Sequence record: PZ445451.1
Origin: a phage
DNA length: 64,000 bases
Reading direction: 5' to 3' (one strand)
The first letter of the stretch is position 1, and the number at the start of each line of letters is the position of its first letter. Under the pieces are notes generated by a model. It was given only the letters and a program-made list of their open reading frames with translations. It was not told the DNA's origin and made no database searches. Below are positions 9,040-58,114 of the stretch, in pieces. The position numbers were made by a program, and so were the translations under genes.

Positions 9040-12000
9040 CTAATGACAACTGGCCCATGAGTTACCAACATCGTACCCAGCAGTGAGAGGTACATTAAGA
9101 TTGTAATACTCACCAGCTTTATTAACAGCGATAGATGCTAATTCTCCAGCACGACTGTAGGCTGTAAACCAACCACCTTTCGGAGATTCATGTACGTTCG
9201 CCCAAATCTTGCCAGTACGTTTCTCTTCCTCTTCTTTCCAGGCATTAACTTTATCCAAACATTCTTTATCAATTTTCTTTTGTTCTTCTGGATCATCAAC
9301 TTGAGTCCAACCTAAAGATTCTTTAGAGAACCATTTAAAATGCACCAGATCACGAGTTACTTCAAGTTGTGCTTCATCGTGATATGCAATCATTTGTTGA
9401 ACGAATGACTTATTTTTCCAGTCATCAACAAAAAAGTCAACAGCTAATCCTTCTTCTTCGATAAGATCGTCGTAGATAACCATTGCTCTTTTTGCACAAA
9501 TAACACCACCACTCTGGAACAGAGAGTTAAGTATTGCGTGTGCAGATCGTGTAGGTACTTTTCTACCATCAATACCGAGAATGTATTTCTTACCTGTTTT
9601 AACCCAAAAGTCATGCAGACGTTCTTTAAGAAGCGCAAGAGGTTTTGCAGCTTCCCAGAAAGCATCGTATACAAGCTGTCCTGTATACATATCACTACCT
9701 ATAGTTTTTGCTACTTTTGCAGCTTGAGCACCATAAGTAATACCATACTTAACAGATTTAGCAGGGCTTCGTTCAAACTTACGACCAATAGTGTCAGAAA
9801 TACGTCGAGCCATCATTGTATGAACATCATTAGGTTTTTCCAATAATAGAGCATTACAATATTCGTGTGGTTCCTGCTCGTACCGCCAACAATTCCCTGT
9901 AATCGTGATGCAGTCTTTCTGACGCATAACCCATGTACCGAGTTCTGTTTGTGGACACCAAACATCTTCTACACCCCATTCTTCAATAGTCAGACTTTGA
10001 ACAGGGATGTGAGAGCGGTTAGCCAACGTTGCCACTTTTACTTTCTGGTCTTTCGTATTGAAGGCTACAGAAATATTACCCCCATGAACCAGGTATGAGG
10101 CAGTTAAGGCTGCTTCAAAAAGTTCTCCTGGGTTCTGCGCCCAGCGCCAAACAGGTTTTTGTTTATGTTTGTGCCAGTAACCATCCGCAATCAAAAAACC
10201 TTCCAAGAAAGCCACACGCTCGGCATGAGACATATTAACTACACGTTCTACCCACGGAACATCCCATTTACCTTGTTGAACAGAAGTTAAACTATTTACT
10301 TGATCTTGTTCCATGTTAAATGGAGCATTACAAATAATGTTATCTCCTGTGCAAAGCTCGGCAGTTGTTCTGACTTTAGGCACATAAGTATTCCCTGTAC
10401 TACGAGTATTAACATACCAACGGTGATCTGCTGTTGCACGATAAGTATGGGATTTTCCTTTAATCTCAAACGTCTTACTATTTTTATAGAAGACCTTACC
10501 TTTTACTTTAGTCCATTCTTTAAGTCCTGTTTCTGGGTTATATCCTAAGATTTCATCCCCTTCTTGTAGATCGTGATAACCAACCCAACCTTTACGGGTT
10601 AGTGCTTGTGCATCCATAGGTACACAGTAGTGTGATTCTATTTTTGCCTCAAGAGAATCAAAGTCATAACCAATTTGGAAGTATTTTGGAACTTCTACAC
10701 CAAATAAGTTACGCATTTCATATCCGTACAGAGATGTTACACGTGGGATATTTGCTACTAACCTATGTTTCATACGAGATGTAGCTGCATCACACGTTGC
10801 AGCAGGAGTTGGTATACGACCATCAGCCCTTACTGCTGCCAGATAACCTTTATCGTAATCCTCTTCATCTTCTTCCCAATCAGCACCACCACCTAGAATA
10901 GAGTTCCTACGGTGTTTATACGTAAGATACTGCACAATCTGCGTAGCATAAGGAAACTTTTCACCCAGTGCTTCCAAGTTAGGACAAATATCTTTCTCTT
11001 GCCCTTTTGTAAAGGAAGGGTTCGTAAGCACTTTAACACCACGACCTTTAGCTTTAGCAATACGATCTCTTAGTTTCCATTCCAAAGTTTCTGGTGTGCA
11101 CTCCAGATGATCACATCTGTCCTGGCAGAAGTTAGATGCTAACGTTTGATCAACATAGTCACGAATAGCTTTCTCCATTTGTGCTTCATCTTTCTTAATC
11201 TTAGTGCCAGATTTAAGAGTGATATCTTTATCTTTGTATTCAGATGGACTCCAACCTAAACCAACTAACCAGTTTTTAATATGTGTAGTGTCGTCTAAAG
11301 TAGCAGGTACTGTAGGATCACAAATAGGTTCTTCTGCTGGAATAGGGAGTTTAAACTCTTTACCTAAAGCAAATAACCACCAACCATCTTCTTTTTGTAC
11401 AAGTTCACCAGAATGTTTCTCTGCAAACTTTATCATGTTACTTGAAGGTTCACCATTCTTTTTAAACTGTAGTTTAGGTGGAATGAATGATTTCAAATAA
11501 CCTTTGGTAGCAGGTTTAGGAGGTAGCACAGGTTCTGCCTCTAAACGACATGCTTCCATTCGAGCATCCAGATCACGAATATTATCTTCTGCTTGTTTCA
11601 TATTGAAAGCAAAGCCACGGTGCTCTTGACGTGTAATAATATCAGCTACACGTTGTTCTAAGTTAAATGGTTCAGACCACTTATTATAATCACCCCACTC
11701 TTCCATCAAATAACGGAACACTGCGGTGTTAGCTTTGTTATCGTAAATACAGTAATACAGCATATCTGCTGCAAATGTTTTAAATCTTTCAGTTTCAGGG
11801 ATGTTTTTTCTAAAATCAATTTTAACATCCCCTCCAGCTTTCTTAGATAACTCTGCCAGACTATGACCACCGAAGCGATCAGGGTTTAGTGTCTTACTTA
11901 AGATCATAGTATCACAAATTTCAATGTTACTATTACCCCAAGTATTGTACTTAATACTGTAGTTGAGTTTAAAAAATAATTTAATTGCCAGTAAGTCGAA

Positions 12001-12354
12001 GTTAATGATGTTGTGTCCAACTACTTTGGTAATTTTATAGTTTGAATTACCTTTAAATTTACCTGTTCCATTTACAAAATCAGGAAAATCTTTAAGAGGG
12101 AAATGGGTATATTCTAAATGCTCATATTCCTCCAATCGGTATTCATACTTTCCGTCAGTCTCAATATACGGACGACCATCGAAAAGATATTTATCACCAT
12201 CATGGAAAGCAATAATCTCTCCAGTATCATGACTTTCGCACACAATACAGTGCATTGCAAAACTATCTTTTAAACGATATGGACTTGCCAAGTAATCTAC
12301 ACTTTCGTCATTAAGCAAGTTGTTACTTTCAATGTCGAAAGTAAAAGCTCCCAT
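9040..12354 (-). CDS. DNA polymerase family A with 3'-5' exonuclease domain, interrupted by an intein
   Basis: Motif A GYDFDSLEAKIESHY, motif B RSPAKSVKYGITYG, motif C AYHDE; AAGGAGG RBS; 245-residue insert between motifs A and B. Confidence 0.9.
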   Translation of the reverse strand: MGAFTFDIESNNLLNDESVDYLASPYRLKDSFAMHCIVCESHDTGEIIAFHDGDKYLFDGRPYIETDGKYEYRLEEYEHLEYTHFPLKDFPDFVNGTGKFKGNSNYKITKVVGHNIINFDLLAIKLFFKLNYSIKYNTWGNSNIEICDTMILSKTLNPDRFGGHSLAELSKKAGGDVKIDFRKNIPETERFKTFAADMLYYCIYDNKANTAVFRYLMEEWGDYNKWSEPFNLEQRVADIITRQEHRGFAFNMKQAEDNIRDLDARMEACRLEAEPVLPPKPATKGYLKSFIPPKLQFKKNGEPSSNMIKFAEKHSGELVQKEDGWWLFALGKEFKLPIPAEEPICDPTVPATLDDTTHIKNWLVGLGWSPSEYKDKDITLKSGTKIKKDEAQMEKAIRDYVDQTLASNFCQDRCDHLECTPETLEWKLRDRIAKAKGRGVKVLTNPSFTKGQEKDICPNLEALGEKFPYATQIVQYLTYKHRRNSILGGGADWEEDEEDYDKGYLAAVRADGRIPTPAATCDAATSRMKHRLVANIPRVTSLYGYEMRNLFGVEVPKYFQIGYDFDSLEAKIESHYCVPMDAQALTRKGWVGYHDLQEGDEILGYNPETGLKEWTKVKGKVFYKNSKTFEIKGKSHTYRATADHRWYVNTRSTGNTYVPKVRTTAELCTGDNIICNAPFNMEQDQVNSLTSVQQGKWDVPWVERVVNMSHAERVAFLEGFLIADGYWHKHKQKPVWRWAQNPGELFEAALTASYLVHGGNISVAFNTKDQKVKVATLANRSHIPVQSLTIEEWGVEDVWCPQTELGTWVMRQKDCITITGNCWRYEQEPHEYCNALLLEKPNDVHTMMARRISDTIGRKFERSPAKSVKYGITYGAQAAKVAKTIGSDMYTGQLVYDAFWEAAKPLALLKERLHDFWVKTGKKYILGIDGRKVPTRSAHAILNSLFQSGGVICAKRAMVIYDDLIEEEGLAVDFFVDDWKNKSFVQQMIAYHDEAQLEVTRDLVHFKWFSKESLGWTQVDDPEEQKKIDKECLDKVNAWKEEEEKRTGKIWANVHESPKGGWFTAYSRAGELASIAVNKAGEYYNLNVPLTAGYDVGNSWASCH
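9892..10626 (-). mobile_element. Intein in DNA polymerase with LAGLIDADG-like homing-endonuclease motif
   Basis: Starts with Cys right after motif A, TADH block B, LEGFLIADGY motif, ends ...ITITGN followed by Cys; removal restores normal A-to-B spacing. Confidence 0.65.
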
Positions 12355-27212: not shown

Positions 27213-27929
27213 TTATTTCAGTTTGTAAACAATTACATTTAAACCTTTGTTTACTAGAGTTTCTTCGATCATAAGTTTTACAATATTCCAAGAACCTCCA
27301 GCCAAACCACAACCAAGCATTGGTAAACCTACAATTTTACCGCCTGAAGATACAACATCGTCTCCCATACTATCTAGCGCATTGTAGATAGCTTCATAAT
27401 TCAGGTCACGCTTACCTTCCTCACGACTACTATAACCATATTGTCCATATAAATTATAAATTGTCAAATTGTTTTCTGTATATTTGGTAAACGTACCTAA
27501 TTTTTTATAATCACCACGTTTAGTGGCACAATCTGCTTTAAACGCACCAGGCCACTTGCTTTTAATTTTTGGTGCAATACCACTACCCATAGTGCAAAAA
27601 CAGTTACAGCAGTGTGCTATAGCGTCTATATCGCCTCTCTCGGCTGCTGCTAAAAGATCACCGTATACCTCAACGATACCTGCTGGATAACTTGTTACAA
27701 TTTCATCTTCCCAGTACATTTTCTCTACACCACCGATCAGTGCAAAGTTTTGTGTAATGCGATCATCAATATAGTTAAGACCTGAAACATACACAGCGTA
27801 TTCATCCTGTGCTGTAATACCTTGCACACGAATTCTTAAGACACCATCTTTATCTGTTGCTACACGCCCAAAATCTTTTTCTGTAATATTGGTGATAGGA
27901 TCTCCGAAAGTCATTACTTTATTAGACAT
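27213..27929 (-). CDS. Rossmann-like nucleotide-processing domain protein (macro- or LOG/SLOG-like)
   Basis: DAIAHCCNCFCTMGSGIA and VGLPMLGCGLAGGSW Gly-rich loops resembling macro or LOG motifs; start set at ATG after AAGGGG, overlapping PRTase stop by 8 nt. Confidence 0.45.
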   Translation of the reverse strand: MSNKVMTFGDPITNITEKDFGRVATDKDGVLRIRVQGITAQDEYAVYVSGLNYIDDRITQNFALIGGVEKMYWEDEIVTSYPAGIVEVYGDLLAAAERGDIDAIAHCCNCFCTMGSGIAPKIKSKWPGAFKADCATKRGDYKKLGTFTKYTENNLTIYNLYGQYGYSSREEGKRDLNYEAIYNALDSMGDDVVSSGGKIVGLPMLGCGLAGGSWNIVKLMIEETLVNKGLNVIVYKLK

Positions 27930-28779
27930 AATAATCCCCTTTAACATTAGATTTGTTGATAATGTTGCTTTCAAAAAATTGACGTAGGAAATCAAAGTTC
28001 TCTTTGTATTTTTCAACGTTATTGTAACCTTCTGCAAGGCAACCAAAGAACAGTTGTTCTACATAATACAAAGGAAGTTGTGAAAGTGCAATTTTAAAAT
28101 CAACTTCGCTTTGACTCATTAGATACTTAATAGGACGAACCAAACATTTAGCATCAGTTTCTTGCTTAATCATTTTAATAAAAGCTGCCAGATTGTTGAT
28201 ATAGTTGAAGTTAAGTGCAGCTTCGGTATTGGCTTCTGTACCTTCATACTTTGCAAAGTACAGGAAAAACGTATCGTTTTCAACACCTTCTTTGTCTAAA
28301 ATTTCAATAAGTTTTTCTTCGTGTGTTCCTGTAATATTAACATCATCAATGAAAATCAGAGTTTTATTACCCCAGAAATCACGATTGATAGAGAAAGTGT
28401 CACCATCGATCAAAGCCTTACGATCTTCTTTGCTAAGAAATCCATAATCATTAATGTAGCTCACTTTACGATGAACGATATCCCACTCCACTGCTTTACC
28501 TCCTTTGATAGAGATTAGGTAGTTGAGGTGATCTACAAAATGTTCAGATAACACTGTAGCTGCATTTTTCACATAGTTATATGGAGATGGAATAACAACA
28601 AAACTTTCATTTACCAGTCGTTCTTCATACTTAGAAAAGAAACTTTCAGCCAGAATGCGCCCCATTCTTTTTGCTGCCTGGTTACTGCCAAACTTTAGCT
28701 TGGAATAATCTGCAATGTTAAATTTTGCTTCCTTCAGGTTAGTAAAAGTATTAGCAAAATGTTGAATTTGATTACGCAT
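27922..28779 (-). CDS. Type I phosphoribosyltransferase-domain protein
   Basis: PRPP-binding signature LIFIDDVNITGTHEE. Confidence 0.6.
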   Translation of the reverse strand: MRNQIQHFANTFTNLKEAKFNIADYSKLKFGSNQAAKRMGRILAESFFSKYEERLVNESFVVIPSPYNYVKNAATVLSEHFVDHLNYLISIKGGKAVEWDIVHRKVSYINDYGFLSKEDRKALIDGDTFSINRDFWGNKTLIFIDDVNITGTHEEKLIEILDKEGVENDTFFLYFAKYEGTEANTEAALNFNYINNLAAFIKMIKQETDAKCLVRPIKYLMSQSEVDFKIALSQLPLYYVEQLFFGCLAEGYNNVEKYKENFDFLRQFFESNIINKSNVKGDYYV

Positions 28780-29428
28780 TAATAAGTTCCTCTTTTTTAA
28801 GTTTAGCCAACAAGTCTTCTGGATTAATAATATGACAGAACTTCATCCCTATGTCAACAGCTTTTCCATCATAGATCAAACTATCTCCAACGTGTAAGAT
28901 CTCCTCTGGTGCGAGATCAAACGTTACCATTTCATCAAAAGAGAGTTTAAAAAACCTGGGATCTGGTTTACACAAGCAAAACTCATCAGAAAAATGCATA
29001 AAGTCAAATGGTAATTTTGTCAAGCCAGAATATACAGCTAAGAAACTACCAGGTACAAAATTGGTATTGCTTTTAATACTCAAAGAATAGGTTGAACTTA
29101 GCTCTTCCAACTTCTTGCAAAGTTCAGGGTTTAATGTTGGAGGATGTTTTATAAACATTGCTAAACAGTCTCTTTTTAACCCATCCACCTTATCAAGATC
29201 AATGTTCAAATGAGCAGAAAGTGTTTCCCAAGCATTTCTAGATGTTCCACAAATGCCTTTTTCTGCTTTTAAATCCAAGAGAGTTTTTACCTCTTTATAT
29301 ACGGTAGCTGCTTCTACCTCAGAACAAGAGGCATACTCGGCAATAACCTTGTTGCGTTCTTCTGCATACAAAGGATTAGCAGTAATAAGAGTATTCCATA
29401 CATCAAAAGAAATATGCTTAACAGTCAT
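28772..29428 (-). CDS. HAD-superfamily hydrolase (phosphatase-like)
   Basis: N-terminal ISFDVWNTLI motif I-like block and C-terminal HVGDSLIYDGK motif IV-like block; overlaps PRTase start by 8 nt. Confidence 0.55.
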   Translation of the reverse strand: MTVKHISFDVWNTLITANPLYAEERNKVIAEYASCSEVEAATVYKEVKTLLDLKAEKGICGTSRNAWETLSAHLNIDLDKVDGLKRDCLAMFIKHPPTLNPELCKKLEELSSTYSLSIKSNTNFVPGSFLAVYSGLTKLPFDFMHFSDEFCLCKPDPRFFKLSFDEMVTFDLAPEEILHVGDSLIYDGKAVDIGMKFCHIINPEDLLAKLKKEELINA

Positions 29429-35617: not shown

Positions 35618-38392
35618 TTAGTTTATCAGTTTATTTATGTCTGGTAAAAGATTTATTTCACCTAAGAAATCACCTTCACCTTCCTCTAGCCAACTCTCAT
35701 ATGCTTGTGCATGATTATAGTTACCATCAAAAGAATCTGCAACAAATTTTTCTACAGTTTTTCGAGATGTGCCAGCGCCAAATACACCAAGTTTAATACT
35801 ATTGATCGGTAAAGTGGTGCTTGTTGGTACTTTCTCTGTTGCAACACGGTTGATATCTATAATCTCCTGTACGGTTGTGTTCCATTGTAAGCATTTAACA
35901 CAACGGGTATGCGCTACATACAGTAGGTTTCGCTCTGCCTCTTCCAGTCCTACCCATTCACCAGTTTTTTTATCATAATTGGAAGGAAAATCATTAGCAA
36001 CAATAACCTGATCCCACTCCAAACCTTTAGACTTGTGTGCTGTAGTCAATGTGACTTTTGCTGTAGGAGAATTTCTATGCGTTCTAAGTGTATGTGCTAT
36101 AGTGTTTGCCTTGCCAGAAACTACGATGTTTAACAAGCGTTTAGCATCTGGATCAGCCTCTGCACACTCAACAAATTCATTCCAGTCTGCGTAAGGTAAT
36201 ACAGTTTCATGTTTTACTTTCTCAATATCTCCTCTCCGAAGAGCATTAACACTATCTACCATAGAGATAAAATCCCTGGTATCTACGTTAATAATAATTT
36301 CTTCCCCATCTGCAATACGATCCATTGCCTCCATAAGCAAGGTTAAATTCTTGCGAAAGATGATAGTGTAAGGTTTTGTATAGTCTACAACATCTGATTT
36401 GTAGCTACCTACTACAGTATCAAAGCCTTTACCAACCAAAGGATGACGCAAAGGTTCTTTATCGCTTAAAATCATATTGGCAATGTTTGCCACTTTGGGG
36501 CCAAAACGGAAGCAAGCAGTTAATGGAAGCTCTGCCCCATACTTAGCTGTTTCAATCATCATATTAGAGCTACCTCTAAATTGATAAATGCAGTTGTGGC
36601 TAAGAATTTCATTGCCAAAGAAGTTAGCAGTATCCTCTACTTCAATATCATAATAGATACCCTCACTATCTACAATGTCCACAATCTCTTCTGCCGTTAC
36701 AGTATCACCATCTTTTACCAACACAGACATGCCTTTAAACAAACCCGCTGCCGGAATTAAGTTATATTTGGCACTGTTCACAGAGGACATGCATTCTTTT
36801 AAAGATGCAAACGGAACTATTTCAAGGATCTTTTGTGCAAAACTCAATGCTTCACGATAAGAATTGAAATATTTACGTACACGGTAACGACCTTCCAATT
36901 TAGCAGCACTTACGCTTACACCTGCTTTAATCAGTGAAGAATAGATCGGCATTTCACTTTCTGTCCACTCAAAACTAACTTGTGTTCCTTTACAACCTTG
37001 TGCTCGCAAAGTCACTGTTAGCATTTTTCTTTCATCTACTGCACAATTGATGCTGTGCCAGTGTGGATAAGCAAAATGATAATCTTTATCCTCTAAAAGT
37101 TTAAAACCATTTTGTCCGAATTGTTCAAAGATGTTATTGATCCTTTCTTGATTAATGCCGCGTGAACTTGCTTCAAATACACAAGTAGGAATGCCATATT
37201 GTAAACTGTATGCCATTTCTTTTTCCATAGCAGCTTCACGGTTTTCAACAATATCCAACACCCATAATTTCTGTGCTTTTTCAGAACGTGTACGTTGCCC
37301 CAGTTTAGAAAAACCTTCTTTATCATCGAATTTGTTAGTGATCCCTACTCGGAAACCTAAATCTTTCCTCCACATTAGGTATACCACCATCTGATCATCT
37401 TTCAGAACATAGGATGAAGCCCAAATACGATGGTTATGTGTCATATCTAAAGTTTTACCTGTGGCAGTAATAATATTCCTACCTTTTGTACGTGTAGATA
37501 AAGTCTTATTTGTTACTTTTCTAAATGTAATTTTACCATTAGAATAAGACTCTACCTTATCACCGATTTGTAGGTCTTTCATTGTAACCTGACCATTCTC
37601 GGTATTAAGTACCGTGTTTTCCGACACACATTGGAATTCATCGCCCACTACCACAATTTGTTTTGCAGATTTAGCATTTCGCAGAATAGACAAGAATGCA
37701 GGGTTAACATCCTGGAATTCATCACCAAAAATAATGTCATAACCAAGATCAGCACCTGATAACTCAAACAATTTTACATAGGTGTCATGCGTCATCAAAG
37801 TATCTGTGTTAGGATCAATGCGCTCTCGCCACAATTGTTTTGCATACTTAACTACTTCTGTAATTAGTTTGTGTTCGTTAATACCTTTTCTTTTAATATC
37901 TGCAAGATGTACACCAGGGAAATGTTTACGGCTGATAAAAGGATCATCCGAAAATTCAAACTTACCTACGGTTTGCTTGATCATTAAACCAATCATAGCA
38001 CGAGTTAAAAGTGTTTTCCCTCGTTTATCAATAAGATTATTAATCTTAAATTTCTTTGCTATCTCACTACCTGTACCTGCAACGTTAACATACTGTCCTT
38101 CTGGTCGTGACAGTTTTGCACGTAAACGATGATCCAGGAATTGATAGCAAATGGAATGCAATGTACGGCATTCTACATTTGGTGGCATCTTACGCCGTGC
38201 TTCTTCTGCCATGCTTTTATTGAAAGCTAAGTAAAGAATGCGATCTTCTGTACTGTTAGCCAGCAAATAAAGTGTTGACGTTTTGCCTGATCCAGATTTA
38301 GCTTGGATAGTTAAAAAACGATGGTCTGGAAAAGCCTCCTTAATAGCTGTTTGCTCTTCTGTTGGAGTAAAACTCAACTCTTTCTTAGCCAT
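35618..38392 (-). CDS. UvrD/Rep-family (SF1) DNA helicase interrupted by an intein
   Basis: Walker A AKSGSGKT, motif II IIFGDEFQD, motif III split as VVVGDEFQ / CIYQFRGSS by a 346-residue insert; start set at ATG after AGAGAGG. Confidence 0.85.
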   Translation of the reverse strand: MAKKELSFTPTEEQTAIKEAFPDHRFLTIQAKSGSGKTSTLYLLANSTEDRILYLAFNKSMAEEARRKMPPNVECRTLHSICYQFLDHRLRAKLSRPEGQYVNVAGTGSEIAKKFKINNLIDKRGKTLLTRAMIGLMIKQTVGKFEFSDDPFISRKHFPGVHLADIKRKGINEHKLITEVVKYAKQLWRERIDPNTDTLMTHDTYVKLFELSGADLGYDIIFGDEFQDVNPAFLSILRNAKSAKQIVVVGDEFQCVSENTVLNTENGQVTMKDLQIGDKVESYSNGKITFRKVTNKTLSTRTKGRNIITATGKTLDMTHNHRIWASSYVLKDDQMVVYLMWRKDLGFRVGITNKFDDKEGFSKLGQRTRSEKAQKLWVLDIVENREAAMEKEMAYSLQYGIPTCVFEASSRGINQERINNIFEQFGQNGFKLLEDKDYHFAYPHWHSINCAVDERKMLTVTLRAQGCKGTQVSFEWTESEMPIYSSLIKAGVSVSAAKLEGRYRVRKYFNSYREALSFAQKILEIVPFASLKECMSSVNSAKYNLIPAAGLFKGMSVLVKDGDTVTAEEIVDIVDSEGIYYDIEVEDTANFFGNEILSHNCIYQFRGSSNMMIETAKYGAELPLTACFRFGPKVANIANMILSDKEPLRHPLVGKGFDTVVGSYKSDVVDYTKPYTIIFRKNLTLLMEAMDRIADGEEIIINVDTRDFISMVDSVNALRRGDIEKVKHETVLPYADWNEFVECAEADPDAKRLLNIVVSGKANTIAHTLRTHRNSPTAKVTLTTAHKSKGLEWDQVIVANDFPSNYDKKTGEWVGLEEAERNLLYVAHTRCVKCLQWNTTVQEIIDINRVATEKVPTSTTLPINSIKLGVFGAGTSRKTVEKFVADSFDGNYNHAQAYESWLEEGEGDFLGEINLLPDINKLIN
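36593..37630 (-). mobile_element. Intein in helicase motif III
   Basis: Begins CVSENTVLN, block B THNH, ends YYDIEVEDTANFFGNEILSHN followed by Cys; excision rebuilds canonical GDxxQ-IYxFRG. Confidence 0.65.
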
Positions 38393-47875: not shown

Positions 47876-47900
47876 AAAACCCGCTTCGGCGGGTTTTCTT
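47876..47900 (+). terminator. Rho-independent terminator AAAACCCGC-TTCG-GCGGGTTTT
   Basis: 9 bp stem with TTCG loop followed by T run. Confidence 0.6.
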
Positions 47901-47934: not shown

Positions 47935-49338
47935 ATGACAGCACCAAAATCATGGGAACAATATAAAGAAGAATTAACACCCCTTGCTAAAAATCACAAT
48001 ATTCAAATCCTGGGTTATGTTGGGGAATGGAAAGGGAGCAAGACTAAACTTAAACTATCTTGCCCTGATCATGGAGAGTGGGAAAGTACCACAATCGCTA
48101 AATTTAAAACTAAAGGCAGTAAATGTTGCCCCGATTGCAATGGTCGTAGAAAAGTAACAGAAGAAAAGGAATGTATTTCCCTTGTTGATATTGCTAAAGA
48201 AAGAGGGTTTACTTTTATAGGTCTTGCCGAGGAGTGGCGAGGTGTGCGAACAAAAATTCGCATAGTTTGCCCTAAACATGGAGAGTGGAACACCACGCAC
48301 ATTATTGATTTTAGGAATGGACGTGGTTGTCCTATCTGTTCTGGTAAGAAGCCGTTAACATGGGAAACAGAATTACCGATCTTGGCAGAGATAGCACAGA
48401 AGAAGGGGTATCAGGTGTTAGGGTACGTTGGAAAATGGAAAGGGTGTTACACAAAACTTGATTTGTTGTGTCATTGTGGGAACAGATGGGATACTACAAG
48501 TATTAACAGTTTTAAAAATGGCAATGGTTGTCCTTTATGTAGGAGGGAGAATATAAGGAAGGCAAAAACAATATCCGACGATCAACATATTGCAGATTTC
48601 TTTTCTACAGGGAAATTTAAGGAAGGCACTATCTTCACCAATACAGGGAAACGTAGTTGTAGTAAATCAGGAGATATTATCTGGATGATCGAGTGTCCTG
48701 TTTGCTCCCATGATGAATATGTTCAAGCAGGTGTTTGCGATGGTAAATTTTACTCTAGAGGAAGTGATCTTAAACAAGGAAGTATCCCTTGCCGCTGTGC
48801 AACTAGCTATCATTATACAGAAAATCAGATTACCTACAAAGTGAGAAAGGAAATAGAAAAGAAAGGGTATGTCTGGGTAGATTGGATTACCAAACCATCT
48901 TCTATAGGTAAGTTTAAATATCTTTGTCTTGTACATGGGGAGCAGATAGGGAGTGCTCGTAACTTATTAACTCAAGGGTGTGGGTGTTCACAGTGTGCTG
49001 GTCATAGTCAACAGCAATTATATATTAATATTGTTAAAGATAATGATATTACAGTTGCTCTTAAGTTTGGCATAGCTAAAGATAGTGACAGGCGATTAAA
49101 CAGTCAAAATAGCCGTAATCTGTTTTTTATGGAGCGTATTTGTTTATATGATTTTAGTACAGTGAAACAGTGTAAGGCTGCTGAAAGAGCTATAAAGAAA
49201 AAATTAAAAACTGGTATCTTAACAGCAAGAGAGTTGAAAGATGGTTATACAGAAACAGTAAGTGTTTCTGATTTGGAAAATCTTCAAAAAATTATTACAC
49301 AATATGGTGGCAAATTAGTATACAGTAAGGAGATGTAA
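47935..49338 (+). CDS. Tandem zinc-ribbon repeat protein with C-terminal T5orf172/GIY-YIG-like domain
   Basis: At least four repeats of CPxHGEW...F(K/R)xGxGCPxC; C-terminus QQQLYINIVKDNDITVALKFGIAKDSDRRLNSQNSRNL resembles T5orf172-type domain. Confidence 0.45.
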   Translation: MTAPKSWEQYKEELTPLAKNHNIQILGYVGEWKGSKTKLKLSCPDHGEWESTTIAKFKTKGSKCCPDCNGRRKVTEEKECISLVDIAKERGFTFIGLAEEWRGVRTKIRIVCPKHGEWNTTHIIDFRNGRGCPICSGKKPLTWETELPILAEIAQKKGYQVLGYVGKWKGCYTKLDLLCHCGNRWDTTSINSFKNGNGCPLCRRENIRKAKTISDDQHIADFFSTGKFKEGTIFTNTGKRSCSKSGDIIWMIECPVCSHDEYVQAGVCDGKFYSRGSDLKQGSIPCRCATSYHYTENQITYKVRKEIEKKGYVWVDWITKPSSIGKFKYLCLVHGEQIGSARNLLTQGCGCSQCAGHSQQQLYINIVKDNDITVALKFGIAKDSDRRLNSQNSRNLFFMERICLYDFSTVKQCKAAERAIKKKLKTGILTARELKDGYTETVSVSDLENLQKIITQYGGKLVYSKEM

Positions 49339-49890
49339 ATGCGGATTACTGATAAGTATGTGTTCTTCTTTTCAGCAAAAGATGAATTTAGCAACTGGTA
49401 TCTATCATCTTTTATTGAACCTTTAGCACCCAAGTATAATAATTCTATTACAAGTTCTGTTGAATTTACTTGTGTGGAACAATATATGATGTGGAGAAAA
49501 GCATGTTTGTTTTATGATTACAGTATTGCATCTTCTATTTTAACCGGAGATCTAAGATATACAGGAGAAAAAGAACAAGCATATTATAAGCGACTAGGCA
49601 GATTAGTTAAAGATTATGATGAAGATACCTGGACTTCTTTACGGGAGAAGATTGTCAAACGTGGTTTGTATCTTAAATACACACAAAATGAAGATCTCAA
49701 AAATAAACTTATAGCCTACGCAGATAAGGAGTTCGTAGAGGCAAGCCCCTATGATTCTATTTATGGTATCAAAATGGGGATGTGGGATCGTGATGTGGAA
49801 AATAAGGACTGTTGGAAAGGACAAAATCTTTTAGGAAAATGGCATACAGACCTTGCTGTTTATCTAAAAACACAATCTGATATTTCCTGA
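49339..49890 (+). CDS. NADAR (YbiA-like) domain protein
   Basis: FFFSAKDEFSNWY, CVEQYMMWRKACLF and DSIYGIK...GQNLLGKWHTDL align with the conserved YbiA blocks. Confidence 0.6.
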   Translation: MRITDKYVFFFSAKDEFSNWYLSSFIEPLAPKYNNSITSSVEFTCVEQYMMWRKACLFYDYSIASSILTGDLRYTGEKEQAYYKRLGRLVKDYDEDTWTSLREKIVKRGLYLKYTQNEDLKNKLIAYADKEFVEASPYDSIYGIKMGMWDRDVENKDCWKGQNLLGKWHTDLAVYLKTQSDIS

Positions 49891-50326: not shown

Positions 50327-50445
50327 GCGTATGATAATCATTCTCATTTGTAAATGAGAATCATTATCATTTAATTATGTAAGTGATAATCATTCTCAGT
50401 AAGAGAATGAGAATCATTAGCAAATGAGAATTTTTCTCATTTAGA
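50327..50445. promoter_or_regulatory. Cluster of Fur-box-like palindromes
   Basis: GTATGATAATCATTCTCATTT-GTA-AATGAGAATCATTATC near-perfect palindrome; GATAATCATTCTCA...GAGAATGAGAATCATTA; AATGAGAA-TTT-TTCTCATT; 13-15 of 19 identity to GATAATGATAATCATTATC. Confidence 0.45.
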
Positions 50446-50703
50446 GAATAACGCGCAGGGGCGGTGTTTGTCTCGCGCTCCCGTGTCCCCTCGCCATACA
50501 ATAAGAATAGCATAACCAACAACAAAAGCAAGCGATTATTTTTATCTTTACATTTCTTTACAAATTTATTTTAGACGAGCTACCGGCGATCAACCTTCCA
50601 ACCAGTGCCCCCTGGTATGTTAGCCCCGCCTTTACGCCGTGGGGGTGGCGTTTCCTCTTCTGTATGTAAAACAGTATAAGCCCGATCCCTGGGCTTGTCA
50701 AGA

Positions 50704-50970
50704 TTATTTTTTGTTTTCTTGCCAGGAAAGGACACCTAACCAAAAATACATATCGCCCCGCGCCCCTGGCGGGATCTTGCTTTCCCCGCCGCCACTGCAA
50801 GCCCATAAATAACCATCAGCGAACGGATCAAAATGTTCTATCTCTTCCACCTTATGATCGCCCAGGTTGAGAACGGTTTCAATCTTTAAGCCCGTTGCGC
50901 TTGCTACCTGGTGCACCGTGCCGCCTTGCCAGCCCAATGAGTGCATGAGATGTAAAGGAGTATTTGTCAT
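50704..50970 (-). CDS. Hypothetical protein inside GC-rich island (possible moron)
   Basis: 88 aa minus-strand ORF with RBS-like AAAGAAAGGG; surrounding 0.6 kb is visibly more GC-rich than flanks. Confidence 0.4.
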   Translation of the reverse strand: MTNTPLHLMHSLGWQGGTVHQVASATGLKIETVLNLGDHKVEEIEHFDPFADGYLWACSGGGESKIPPGARGDMYFWLGVLSWQENKK

Positions 50971-51078
50971 GGTATCGCCCTTTCTTTGATGTGCGCCCTG
51001 GTTGGCGCGGTAGAAAGATAATAGCCGTTTCCTTTATAGATAGCAAGCAAAAAAGAAATGAAAAAAGATTAAAAATGG

Positions 51079-51107
51079 TTGACGTTACCAGGATAATAAC
51101 ATATTAT
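51079..51107 (+). promoter_or_regulatory. sigma70-like promoter TTGACG-17-TATTAT
   Basis: Good -35/-10 match with 17 bp spacer upstream of the early gene array. Confidence 0.45.
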
Positions 51108-51234
51108 TCATCTTGTCGAGGGGGGCAAGGCACAACGACAATAAATAAAAGGCGGGTGCAATGCAGGACGGGCAAAGGTGAGGATCTCCATAATCCACCG
51201 TCACAATAACATTACTTATAAAAGGTTGATAACG

Positions 51235-51339: not shown

Positions 51340-51395
51340 TTGACAACGTTTTTTAATCTGATAAGATGTATCACATAGGGCGGCAATAGTGCCGC
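51340..51395 (+). promoter_or_regulatory. Promoter plus 5' stem-loop unit (PeSL-like)
   Basis: TTGACA 51340-51345, 16 bp spacer, TAAGAT, then CACATAGGGCGGCAATAGTGCCGC hairpin at predicted transcript 5' end. Confidence 0.65.
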
Positions 51396-51419
51396 TCATA
51401 ACAGAAGAGAGAAATAATC

Positions 51420-51692
51420 ATGGCATCATATAGCGCATCAATGATCGTAACGGGCATGACTGGTAAACCTATGCGCGGTGGCGGATCTTTCGCTAACATC
51501 AATATTGATGGGCGTTTATCCCTGGATGCAGCGATCACCGTGGCACGGGAAACATTTAAAAAAGAATGTAATTTCAATAAACAAGATTATCTCGGCTTCG
51601 TTATTGAAAAAACAGCGCGCTTTGTTGATTATAAAAGCCCGAAAATGATCGACACTACACTAAAAGCGCAAGATGTAGCATTTTTGCTTTAA
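51420..51692 (+). CDS. Early protein, unknown function
   Basis: 90 aa ORF downstream of PeSL unit with A/G-rich RBS. Confidence 0.55.
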   Translation: MASYSASMIVTGMTGKPMRGGGSFANINIDGRLSLDAAITVARETFKKECNFNKQDYLGFVIEKTARFVDYKSPKMIDTTLKAQDVAFLL

Positions 51693-54308: not shown

Positions 54309-54368
54309 TTGACAACGTTTTTTAATCTGGTATAGTTTATCGCATAGGGCGGGAAATGGTTTCCCGCC
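54309..54368 (+). promoter_or_regulatory. Promoter plus 5' stem-loop unit (PeSL-like)
   Basis: TTGACA-16-TATAGT, hairpin GGCGGGAAA-TGG-TTTCCCGCC 54348-54368; core identical to the 51696 unit. Confidence 0.7.
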
Positions 54369-54626: not shown

Positions 54627-54684
54627 TTGACAAGACAACTAAAATTAGTAAAATGTAATTCATAGGGCGGCAATAGTGCCGCCC
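54627..54684 (+). promoter_or_regulatory. Promoter plus 5' stem-loop unit (PeSL-like)
   Basis: TTGACA-16-TAAAAT, hairpin GGGCGGCA-ATAG-TGCCGCCC 54665-54684. Confidence 0.65.
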
Positions 54685-54705
54685 CTAGTAAGAGAGATTA
54701 TCAAA

Positions 54706-57863: not shown

Positions 57864-57920
57864 TTGACACTAGGCAAACAACGTAGTAAAGTTTATCACA
57901 TAGGGCGGCAATAGTGCCGC
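57864..57920 (+). promoter_or_regulatory. Promoter plus 5' stem-loop unit (PeSL-like)
   Basis: TTGACA-17-TAAAGT, hairpin GCGGCA-ATAG-TGCCGC 57905-57920; near-identical to the 51340 unit. Confidence 0.65.
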
Positions 57921-57943
57921 TCATAACAGAAGAGAAACAAATC

Positions 57944-58114
57944 ATGATCCCGACTATGTTTTATGTATCGCGCAAAGGTCACAATATTTTTTGGTCTGAA
58001 GATTTAAATGAAGCCATGACGTTTGCCCGTGATCGTGTTGCTATCGGTGGCGTTAACATTACTGTAACCGATGAAAACGGCATTGAATACTATAACGGCG
58101 ACGATGAAGAGTAA
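57944..58114 (+). CDS. Early small protein (56 aa)
   Basis: ATG (MIPTMFYVSRKG); track GTG start lies inside the 5' hairpin. Confidence 0.5.
   Translation: MIPTMFYVSRKGHNIFWSEDLNEAMTFARDRVAIGGVNITVTDENGIEYYNGDDEE

Follow-up and report, generated by a model that had tools for sequence, protein, structure and literature searches.

AdfN^Bas60, a NADAR protein of Escherichia phage PaulScherrer, as a probable DNA ADP-ribosylglycohydrolase countering DarT1

A stretch of phage DNA of 64,000 nucleotides (hereafter "the window") carries at positions 49339-49890 an open reading frame that was predicted, from the sequence alone, to encode a NADAR (YbiA-like) protein reversing ADP-ribosylation of guanine bases and thereby countering DarTG-like defence; an action on NAD-derived metabolites as well was put forward as a possibility. 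Does the ORF encode such a protein, which toxin would it oppose, and is the observation new? We believe, with a probability of about 0.9, that the ORF is adfN^Bas60, i.e., a phage NADAR resembling an orphan antitoxin, and that its product is a DNA ADP-ribosylglycohydrolase countering DarT1.

The window belongs to Escherichia phage PaulScherrer (BASEL Bas60; genus Justusliebigvirus, subfamily Stephanstirmvirinae; genome of 150,425 bp) and corresponds to positions 32676-96675 of record MZ501100.1. One mismatch is found among the 59,400 bases compared with record positions 32676-92075, and the rest overlaps the record identically. The ORF itself is 100% identical to MZ501100.1 82014-82565. It runs from ATG to TGA (49339..49890, plus strand, stop codon included), encodes 183 aa and is annotated as bas60_0111 (QXV83846.1) with the GenBank label "putative YbiA-like N-glycosidase". 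Elsewhere in the window, the GenBank annotation gives DNA polymerase and UvrD/Rep helicase genes interrupted by inteins (9040-12354 and 35618-38392, both on the minus strand), as well as clusters of glycosyltransferase and "disaccharide synthase" genes beside a primase/helicase gene.

Johannesman, Awasthi, Carlson and LeRoux (bioRxiv 2024, PMC11257639; Nat Commun 2025, PMC11825919) reported that Bas60, Bas61 and Bas62 encode a NADAR, which received the name AdfN^Bas60, "anti-DarT factor NADAR" (PMC11825919). The gene-specific parts of their NADAR^Bas60 cloning primers (PMC11257639) match the window exactly and uniquely at 49339-49363 (plus strand) and 49861-49890 (minus strand). A second NADAR was sought among all six-frame ORFs of at least 40 aa of the whole Bas60 genome, using an HMM of 74 homologues and phmmer with YbiA, T4 gp30.3 and PnNADAR as queries. 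The only NADAR ORF is that at record positions 82014-82562 (E 1.2e-65; the runner-up has E 0.2), and neither method found a further one among these ORFs. Considering that the primers fit both ends of the ORF and that it is the sole NADAR ORF in the genome, the protein of Johannesman et al. is, on this sequence evidence, the product of ORF 49339-49890.

The experiments on this protein can accordingly be read as experiments on the present ORF. Expressed from a plasmid, AdfN^Bas60 neutralises DarT1 toxicity in uninfected E. coli, and with it RB69, T5 and Bas25 return to full titre on DarTG1 cells (PMC11825919, Fig. 5b-e); the DarT1 rescue was obtained under plasmid over-expression, and the action is independent of other phage factors (PMC11825919). 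There was no effect for T5 on DarTG2 (PMC11825919, Fig. 5f). The predicted reversal of guanine ADP-ribosylation is thus supported by the published neutralisation of DarT1 and the rescue of three DarTG1-sensitive phages. The wider part of the original prediction, a counter to DarTG-like defence, holds for DarT1/DarTG1 (PMC11825919) and fails for DarTG2, so it does not extend to DarTG generally. The anti-DarT1 function is already published for the same ORF and is not a new finding.

At the level of the domain, the signal is far beyond chance as judged from the sequence. Pfam NADAR PF08719 (DUF1768) is matched with E 3.5e-36 (125.4 bits, the gathering score being 35.1); the match spans profile positions 9-154 of 163 and begins at residue 13. 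The conserved NADAR/YbiA blocks are present: FSNW (residues 17-20), EQYMMWRK (47-54), LGR (86-88) together with W98, VEASPYDSIYGI (133-144) and GQNLLG (161-166). The residues E47, K54, G87, W98, E134, D139, G143, W159, G161, N163 and G166 are invariant in 74 of 74 homologues, and K84 is conserved in at least 90% of them.

The alignment to characterised NADARs, which had been proposed as the check on the prediction, keeps the catalytic residues E47, K54 and E134, with equivalents in PnNADAR, YbiA and DarG1; the ExxxxxxK motif and the second acid of the NADAR superfamily are thus both found, the acid being Glu. The codons for E47 to K54 (EQYMMWRK) lie at 49477..49500 (plus strand) and, by alignment, specify the Glu that binds the distal ribose and the Lys that binds phosphate and adenine; the equivalent pairs are E43/K50 in PnNADAR, E88/K95 in C7 DarG1 and E36/K43 in T4 AdfN. 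The codons for K84 to R102 (KRLGRLVKDYDEDTWTSLR; 49588..49644, plus strand) supply K84, G87, R88, Y93, E95, W98 and R102, the putative pyrophosphate/adenine cradle. Those for E134 to Y142 (EASPYDSIY; 49738..49764, plus strand) supply, again by alignment, the second catalytic acid E134, which aligns with E125 of PnNADAR and E125 of YbiA, as well as D139 and Y142; the last is Trp in most homologues.

The contacts of PnNADAR with ADP-ribose are E43, K50, K75, G78, R79, V81, Y84, D86, W89, R93, E125, D130 and W133 (PMC11543638). Taken in the same order, they correspond to E47, K54, K84, G87, R88, V90, Y93, E95, W98, R102, E134, D139 and Y142 of AdfN^Bas60. In C7 DarG1, mutagenesis showed that removal of ADP-ribose from guanine depends on the equivalents of Pn E43, K50 and E125, and that DarG1 K115 (= Pn K75), dispensable for catalysis, is required for the rescue of cells (PMC11543638). 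As far as alignment can tell, AdfN^Bas60 retains the residues for ADP-ribose binding and catalysis, namely E47, K54, K84, G87, R88, W98, R102, E134 and D139.

The AlphaFold2 model built on the 74-homologue alignment has a mean pLDDT of 97.3 and displays the alpha-helical YbiA-like NADAR fold with small flanking beta-hairpins. Foldseek against the PDB places 8BAU (PnNADAR) first (E 2e-9, TM 0.76) and YbiA (2B3W) second (E 8e-6, TM 0.68-0.73), with no other significant PDB match. Sequence searches of solved structures agree: the single sequence finds 8BAU with E 2e-12 and E. coli YbiA weakly, and the 74-homologue profile finds 8BAU with 1e-36 and YbiA with 2e-18; no DarG1-type chain in the PDB is matched by this profile at E<=0.01. 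The coordinates and the NADAR call of the original prediction are therefore borne out by the Pfam match, the model and the 8BAU match. Its term "YbiA-like" is right as a label of the superfamily and misplaces the protein within it, which is closer to stand-alone NADARs of the non-YbiA type such as PnNADAR.

This placement bears on the question of whether the ORF encodes simply a housekeeping YbiA N-glycosidase that destroys riboflavin intermediates (5-amino-6-ribosylamino-uracil derivatives), the anti-DarT1 effect being a side activity at over-expression. Such a reading could point to NCBIfam TIGR02464, "riboflavin biosynthesis intermediates N-glycosidase", which AdfN^Bas60 matches with 109.4 bits against a cut-off of 73.7; this model evidently captures a wider group of Glu-type NADARs and not YbiA alone, because the homologue profile fits PnNADAR better than YbiA by the values given above. 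It could also point to the catalytic residues, which are identical to those of YbiA, to the Glu in the place of the second acid, described by de Souza and Aravind as the signature of the YbiA family, and to YbiA as the second-best fold match (TM about 0.7); yet AdfN^Bas60 has an 11-residue insert and Lys84, both missing in YbiA, and it rescues cells from DarT1, which YbiA does not. No riboflavin gene (RibA/RibD) is annotated in Bas60, and there is neither a fusion nor a dinG-ybiA-ybiB context. The published phylogeny, too, groups AdfN^Bas60 with non-YbiA bacterial NADARs (PMC11825919). We consider the riboflavin role very improbable. The comparison nonetheless teaches that a shared set of catalytic residues does not by itself establish the physiological substrate, since YbiA hydrolyses guanine-ADPr in vitro and leaves cells unprotected.

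Returning to AdfN^Bas60 as an eraser of DarT1 products, we propose the following course of events. Host DarT1 (of DarTG1) attaches ADP-ribose to the N2 of guanine in single-stranded phage DNA, so that replication is blocked. AdfN^Bas60 would bind the ADP-ribose moiety and hydrolyse the N-glycosidic bond between ribose and guanine. In the binding model, the pyrophosphate would be held by K54, R88, W98, R102 and D139, the adenine by Y93 and K54, and the distal ribose by E47 and E134. The products would be free ADP-ribose and intact DNA, on which replication would proceed. The target would be the modification and not the toxin, other phage factors would be unnecessary, and thymine-linked ADP-ribose, the DarTG2 product, would not be removed. 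We infer the glycohydrolase chemistry from the phenotype and from homology to PnNADAR, DarG1 and AdfN^T4; the gene is presumably expressed early and presumably needed during Bas60 infection.

A protein may also block a toxin with no chemistry at all, by binding DarT1 or by shielding the DNA. There are precedents in AdfA and in another phage NADAR that acts without need for enzymatic activity (the latter cited in PMC11825919), and the in vitro assays and catalytic mutants in PMC11825919 are described for AdfN^T4. On the other hand, neither DarG1 nor AdfN^T4 binds DarT1 in a two-hybrid assay, and catalytic mutants of AdfN^T4 are inactive (PMC11825919). The active-site residues of AdfN^Bas60 are invariant in the 74 homologues, which points to selection for catalysis, and because of this invariance we hold a non-enzymatic mode to be very improbable.

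The gene is conserved among phages. Copies at least 95% identical to adfN^Bas60 occur in about 56 phage genomes (Justusliebigvirus), and homologues are detectable in 717 phage records, where they are labelled "hypothetical", "GTP cyclohydrolase II" or "YbiA". The proteins of Bas61 and Bas62 differ from AdfN^Bas60 by two and three residues, respectively, none of them at the active site. Among changed codons, synonymous outnumber non-synonymous ones by 13:2 against Bas61 and by 16:3 against Bas62, which indicates, at the sequence level, purifying selection.

The gene belongs to a block of rightward genes beginning near 45.3 kb, with a gene for a 375-aa AAA ATPase upstream. Between the two lies bas60_0110 (47935..49338, plus strand), which abuts adfN^Bas60 and encodes 467 aa with four CapR repeats (Pfam E 3e-46) and a C-terminal T5orf172 domain; it matches the PHROG 681 endonuclease with E 4e-91. 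The annotated orthologues are shorter (978 nt in Bas61 and 1173 nt in Bas62), and for this reason we regard bas60_0110 as a variable and probably mobile, homing-endonuclease-like gene. A strong hairpin resembling an intrinsic terminator, AAAACCCGCTTCGGCGGGTTTT (47876..47897, plus strand), separates the AAA ATPase gene from the endonuclease-NADAR pair. The ATG of adfN^Bas60 directly follows the TAA of bas60_0110, and a strong Shine-Dalgarno sequence AAGGAG, read directly from the sequence at 49326..49331 (plus strand) with a 6-nt spacer to the ATG, overlaps the final codons of bas60_0110; this position suggests translational coupling. The two genes are probably co-transcribed, bas60_0110 being functionally separate from the NADAR.

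The 1.5 kb downstream of adfN^Bas60 hold small ORFs only, followed by short genes with sigma-70-like promoters. We considered the region of 49.9-51.4 kb as a non-coding RNA or as captured host DNA and rejected both, there being no tRNA, Rfam or E. coli match; no tRNA or Rfam match was obtained across the whole 64-kb window, and the region shows no excess of RNA structure (z 0.03). Its part at about 50420-51200 reaches a GC content of 50% after a stretch of 23% GC, and is 86-95% identical at the nucleotide level in Phapecoctavirus phages that show no similarity at the flanks. It contains a conserved ORF of 88 aa (50704-50970, minus strand; PHROG 19316, function unknown), several hairpin or terminator-like sites and a near-consensus promoter on the minus strand. 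The occurrence of the downstream region at "two places per genome" is explained by repeats of a promoter module of about 50 bp. This module stands ahead of several small rightward genes (51340-51420, 54309-54355, 54649-54697 and 57894-57944); its copies are 80-94% identical and coincide with TTGACA-type promoter-like sites, and it is likely to be an early-promoter cassette.

Bas60 has other genes related to ADP-ribose and NAD. The protein bas60_0070 (27213-27947, minus strand; 244 aa) contains a macrodomain (Pfam Macro E 2e-7; PADLOC DarG model E 6e-14); in the PDB it matches macrodomains of the TARG1 class (5E3B with 2e-15, OARD1 with 3e-10) and DarG (5M31 with 7e-4). Over residues 93-223 it shares 30% identity (E 1e-17) with T4 Tk.4, a protein that counters DarTG2 and for which the name AdfM was recently introduced; at its N-terminus it has about 90 additional aa. 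The protein is a candidate anti-DarTG2 factor, and Bas60 may have erasers for both DarT types. Together with bas60_0071 and bas60_0072 (27922-29428, minus strand), which overlap it and encode a ComF-like PRTase_3 protein (E 3e-41) and a HAD-family hydrolase, the macrodomain gene makes up a leftward operon; these three genes may form a module for processing ADP-ribose or ribose-phosphate, as their Macro, PRTase and HAD products suggest. An operon link of the NADAR with these genes was considered and rejected, as they are 20 kb away and on the opposite strand. Outside the window, Bas60 has a PRPP-synthetase-like/NAMPT-like pair (MZ501100.1 143141-145839) and a sirtuin-family gene (107000-107812 of the same record). 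The pair is probably the NAD+-reconstitution operon NARP1, known from Bas63 and from three further BASEL phages.

It is tempting to propose, in view of these genes, that AdfN^Bas60 has a wider range as an ADP-ribose eraser and that its principal targets in nature are other than DarT1 products: cytidine-ADPr or RNA-ADPr adducts left by other toxins, or small ADPr-derived immune signals or by-products. Some NADARs do remove cytidine-ADPr (PMC12945103), and Iyer et al. 2022 (Aravind lab) saw phage NADARs as directed mostly against small ADPr derivatives and as co-occurring with Macro domains; the DarT1/DarTG1 phenotype is nevertheless direct and strong (PMC11825919). Of 59 de-replicated viral loci with related NADARs, 13-14 have one or more genes of the NAMPT-like, PRPP-synthetase-like or macrodomain kind at most 6 kb from the NADAR: NAMPT-like genes are near in 13, PRPP-synthetase-like in 10 and Bas60-like macrodomain genes in 10, and nucleoside 2-deoxyribosyltransferase-like genes in 6. 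Bas60 has the corresponding macrodomain, PRS-like/NAMPT-like pair and sirtuin, but at 20-60 kb from the NADAR and in other transcription units, with no operon link. We therefore treat other main targets as a tentative possibility, and it is similarly doubtful that AdfN^Bas60 works alongside the macrodomain and NAD-reconstitution genes of Bas60. Either would be compatible with the DarT1 explanation and would add to it.

The surroundings of related NADARs are of interest in this connection. The NADARs at contigs of large or jumbo phages are 36-46% identical to AdfN^Bas60, and the long contigs with NADARs of 40-45% identity resemble jumbo phages, not bacteria; one of the contigs has an NMNAT-like CTP_transf gene directly next to the NADAR. 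These neighbourhoods suggest NAD/ADPr anti-defence islands in large and jumbo phages, and the PRS-like/NAMPT-like pairs near jumbo-phage NADARs could be NARP1 (Adps and Namat). That AdfN^Bas60 is one arm of a multi-layer arsenal against ADPr- and NAD-based defence (with AdfM-like and NARP1-like arms), acts on substrates beyond DarT1-modified guanine, and has in K84 the determinant of its protection of cells from DarT1 is a conjecture to which we give limited credence.

We return to AdfN^Bas60 as a counter to DarT1. The prediction from sequence alone rightly identified a genuine anti-defence gene, whose biology had already been published for adfN^Bas60 in 2024-25. The labels "YbiA-like N-glycosidase", "GTP cyclohydrolase II" and "swarming motility protein" are misleading or outdated, and should be replaced with AdfN or DNA ADP-ribosylglycohydrolase. 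If bas60_0070 counters DarTG2, Justusliebigvirus phages would lend themselves well to work on resistance to the two DarTG types in combination.

Among the known systems, the closest is PnNADAR from Phytophthora nicotianae (8BAU; Schuller et al. 2023), a stand-alone NADAR not linked to DarT and with Glu as the second acid, like AdfN^Bas60. It is the best match both in sequence and in fold, the ADPr contact positions align, and it hydrolyses guanine-ADPr; unlike AdfN^Bas60, it is a eukaryotic protein. The identity is about 28-34%, and two contacts are replaced (Pn D86 by E95 and Pn W133 by Y142). The subclade of Bas60, to which relatives 55-64% identical to AdfN^Bas60 from Klebsiella, Dompiswa and other phages belong, is set apart from PnNADAR in the alignment by insertions of its own, at about residues 27-40 and 70-82.

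DarG1 (BC4488 family; E. coli C7, G. lovleyi) removes ADP-ribose from guanine N2 and neutralises DarT1 in cells. Like AdfN^Bas60, it has the Glu/Lys pair and an additional Lys (K115 = K84), whereas its second acid is Asp (D171 in the C7 NADAR) where AdfN^Bas60 has Glu E134. The N-terminal beta-beta-alpha extension of DarG1 is missing in AdfN^Bas60, where the match starts from residue 13 and the first strand occupies residues 7-10. No DarT/ART gene is found near adfN^Bas60 or in the Bas60 annotation, and no neighbour has a PADLOC DarT match; the gene is thus an orphan NADAR of a lytic phage without cognate DarT, as in the definition of AdfN. In the published tree, AdfN^Bas60 falls in another clade than DarG1, among bacterial NADARs that are neither DarT-associated nor YbiA, and the Bas60 NADAR was acquired independently (PMC11825919).

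The phage counterpart, AdfN^T4 (gp30.3 of T-even phages), is likewise an orphan NADAR, active against DarTG1 but not against DarTG2, with the Glu/Lys pair E36/K43. Pairwise similarity to AdfN^Bas60 is undetectable by BLASTP (E 2.3); at the position of E134 it has His (PMC11543638, PMC11825919), and at that of K84 it has Gln in the alignment. AdfN^T4 requires the T-even context and fails against DarT1 in uninfected cells, whereas AdfN^Bas60 succeeds there (PMC11825919). The two NADARs were acquired independently.

E. coli YbiA (2B3W) has the fold and the catalytic residues of AdfN^Bas60 at 25% identity. According to the literature, its in vitro activity on guanine-ADPr gives no DarT1 protection in cells, in contrast to AdfN^Bas60. 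The insert that it lacks would precede GxNxLG, and is carried before GQNLLG by AdfN^Bas60 and its clade; YbiA belongs to a LexA-regulated host operon, dinG-ybiA-ybiB, unlike the stand-alone adfN^Bas60. At the position of DarG1 K115, Lys is present in AdfN^Bas60 (K84, codon 49588-49590) and in a T5-like protein of the AdfN^Bas32 type, whose gene ends fit the AdfN^Bas32 primers, against Ala in YbiA and Gln in gp30.3. In these five proteins (n=5), Lys at this position tracks the neutralisation of DarT1 in uninfected cells. We offer as a hypothesis that K84 may be the determinant separating cell-protecting NADARs from those of the YbiA/gp30.3 type.
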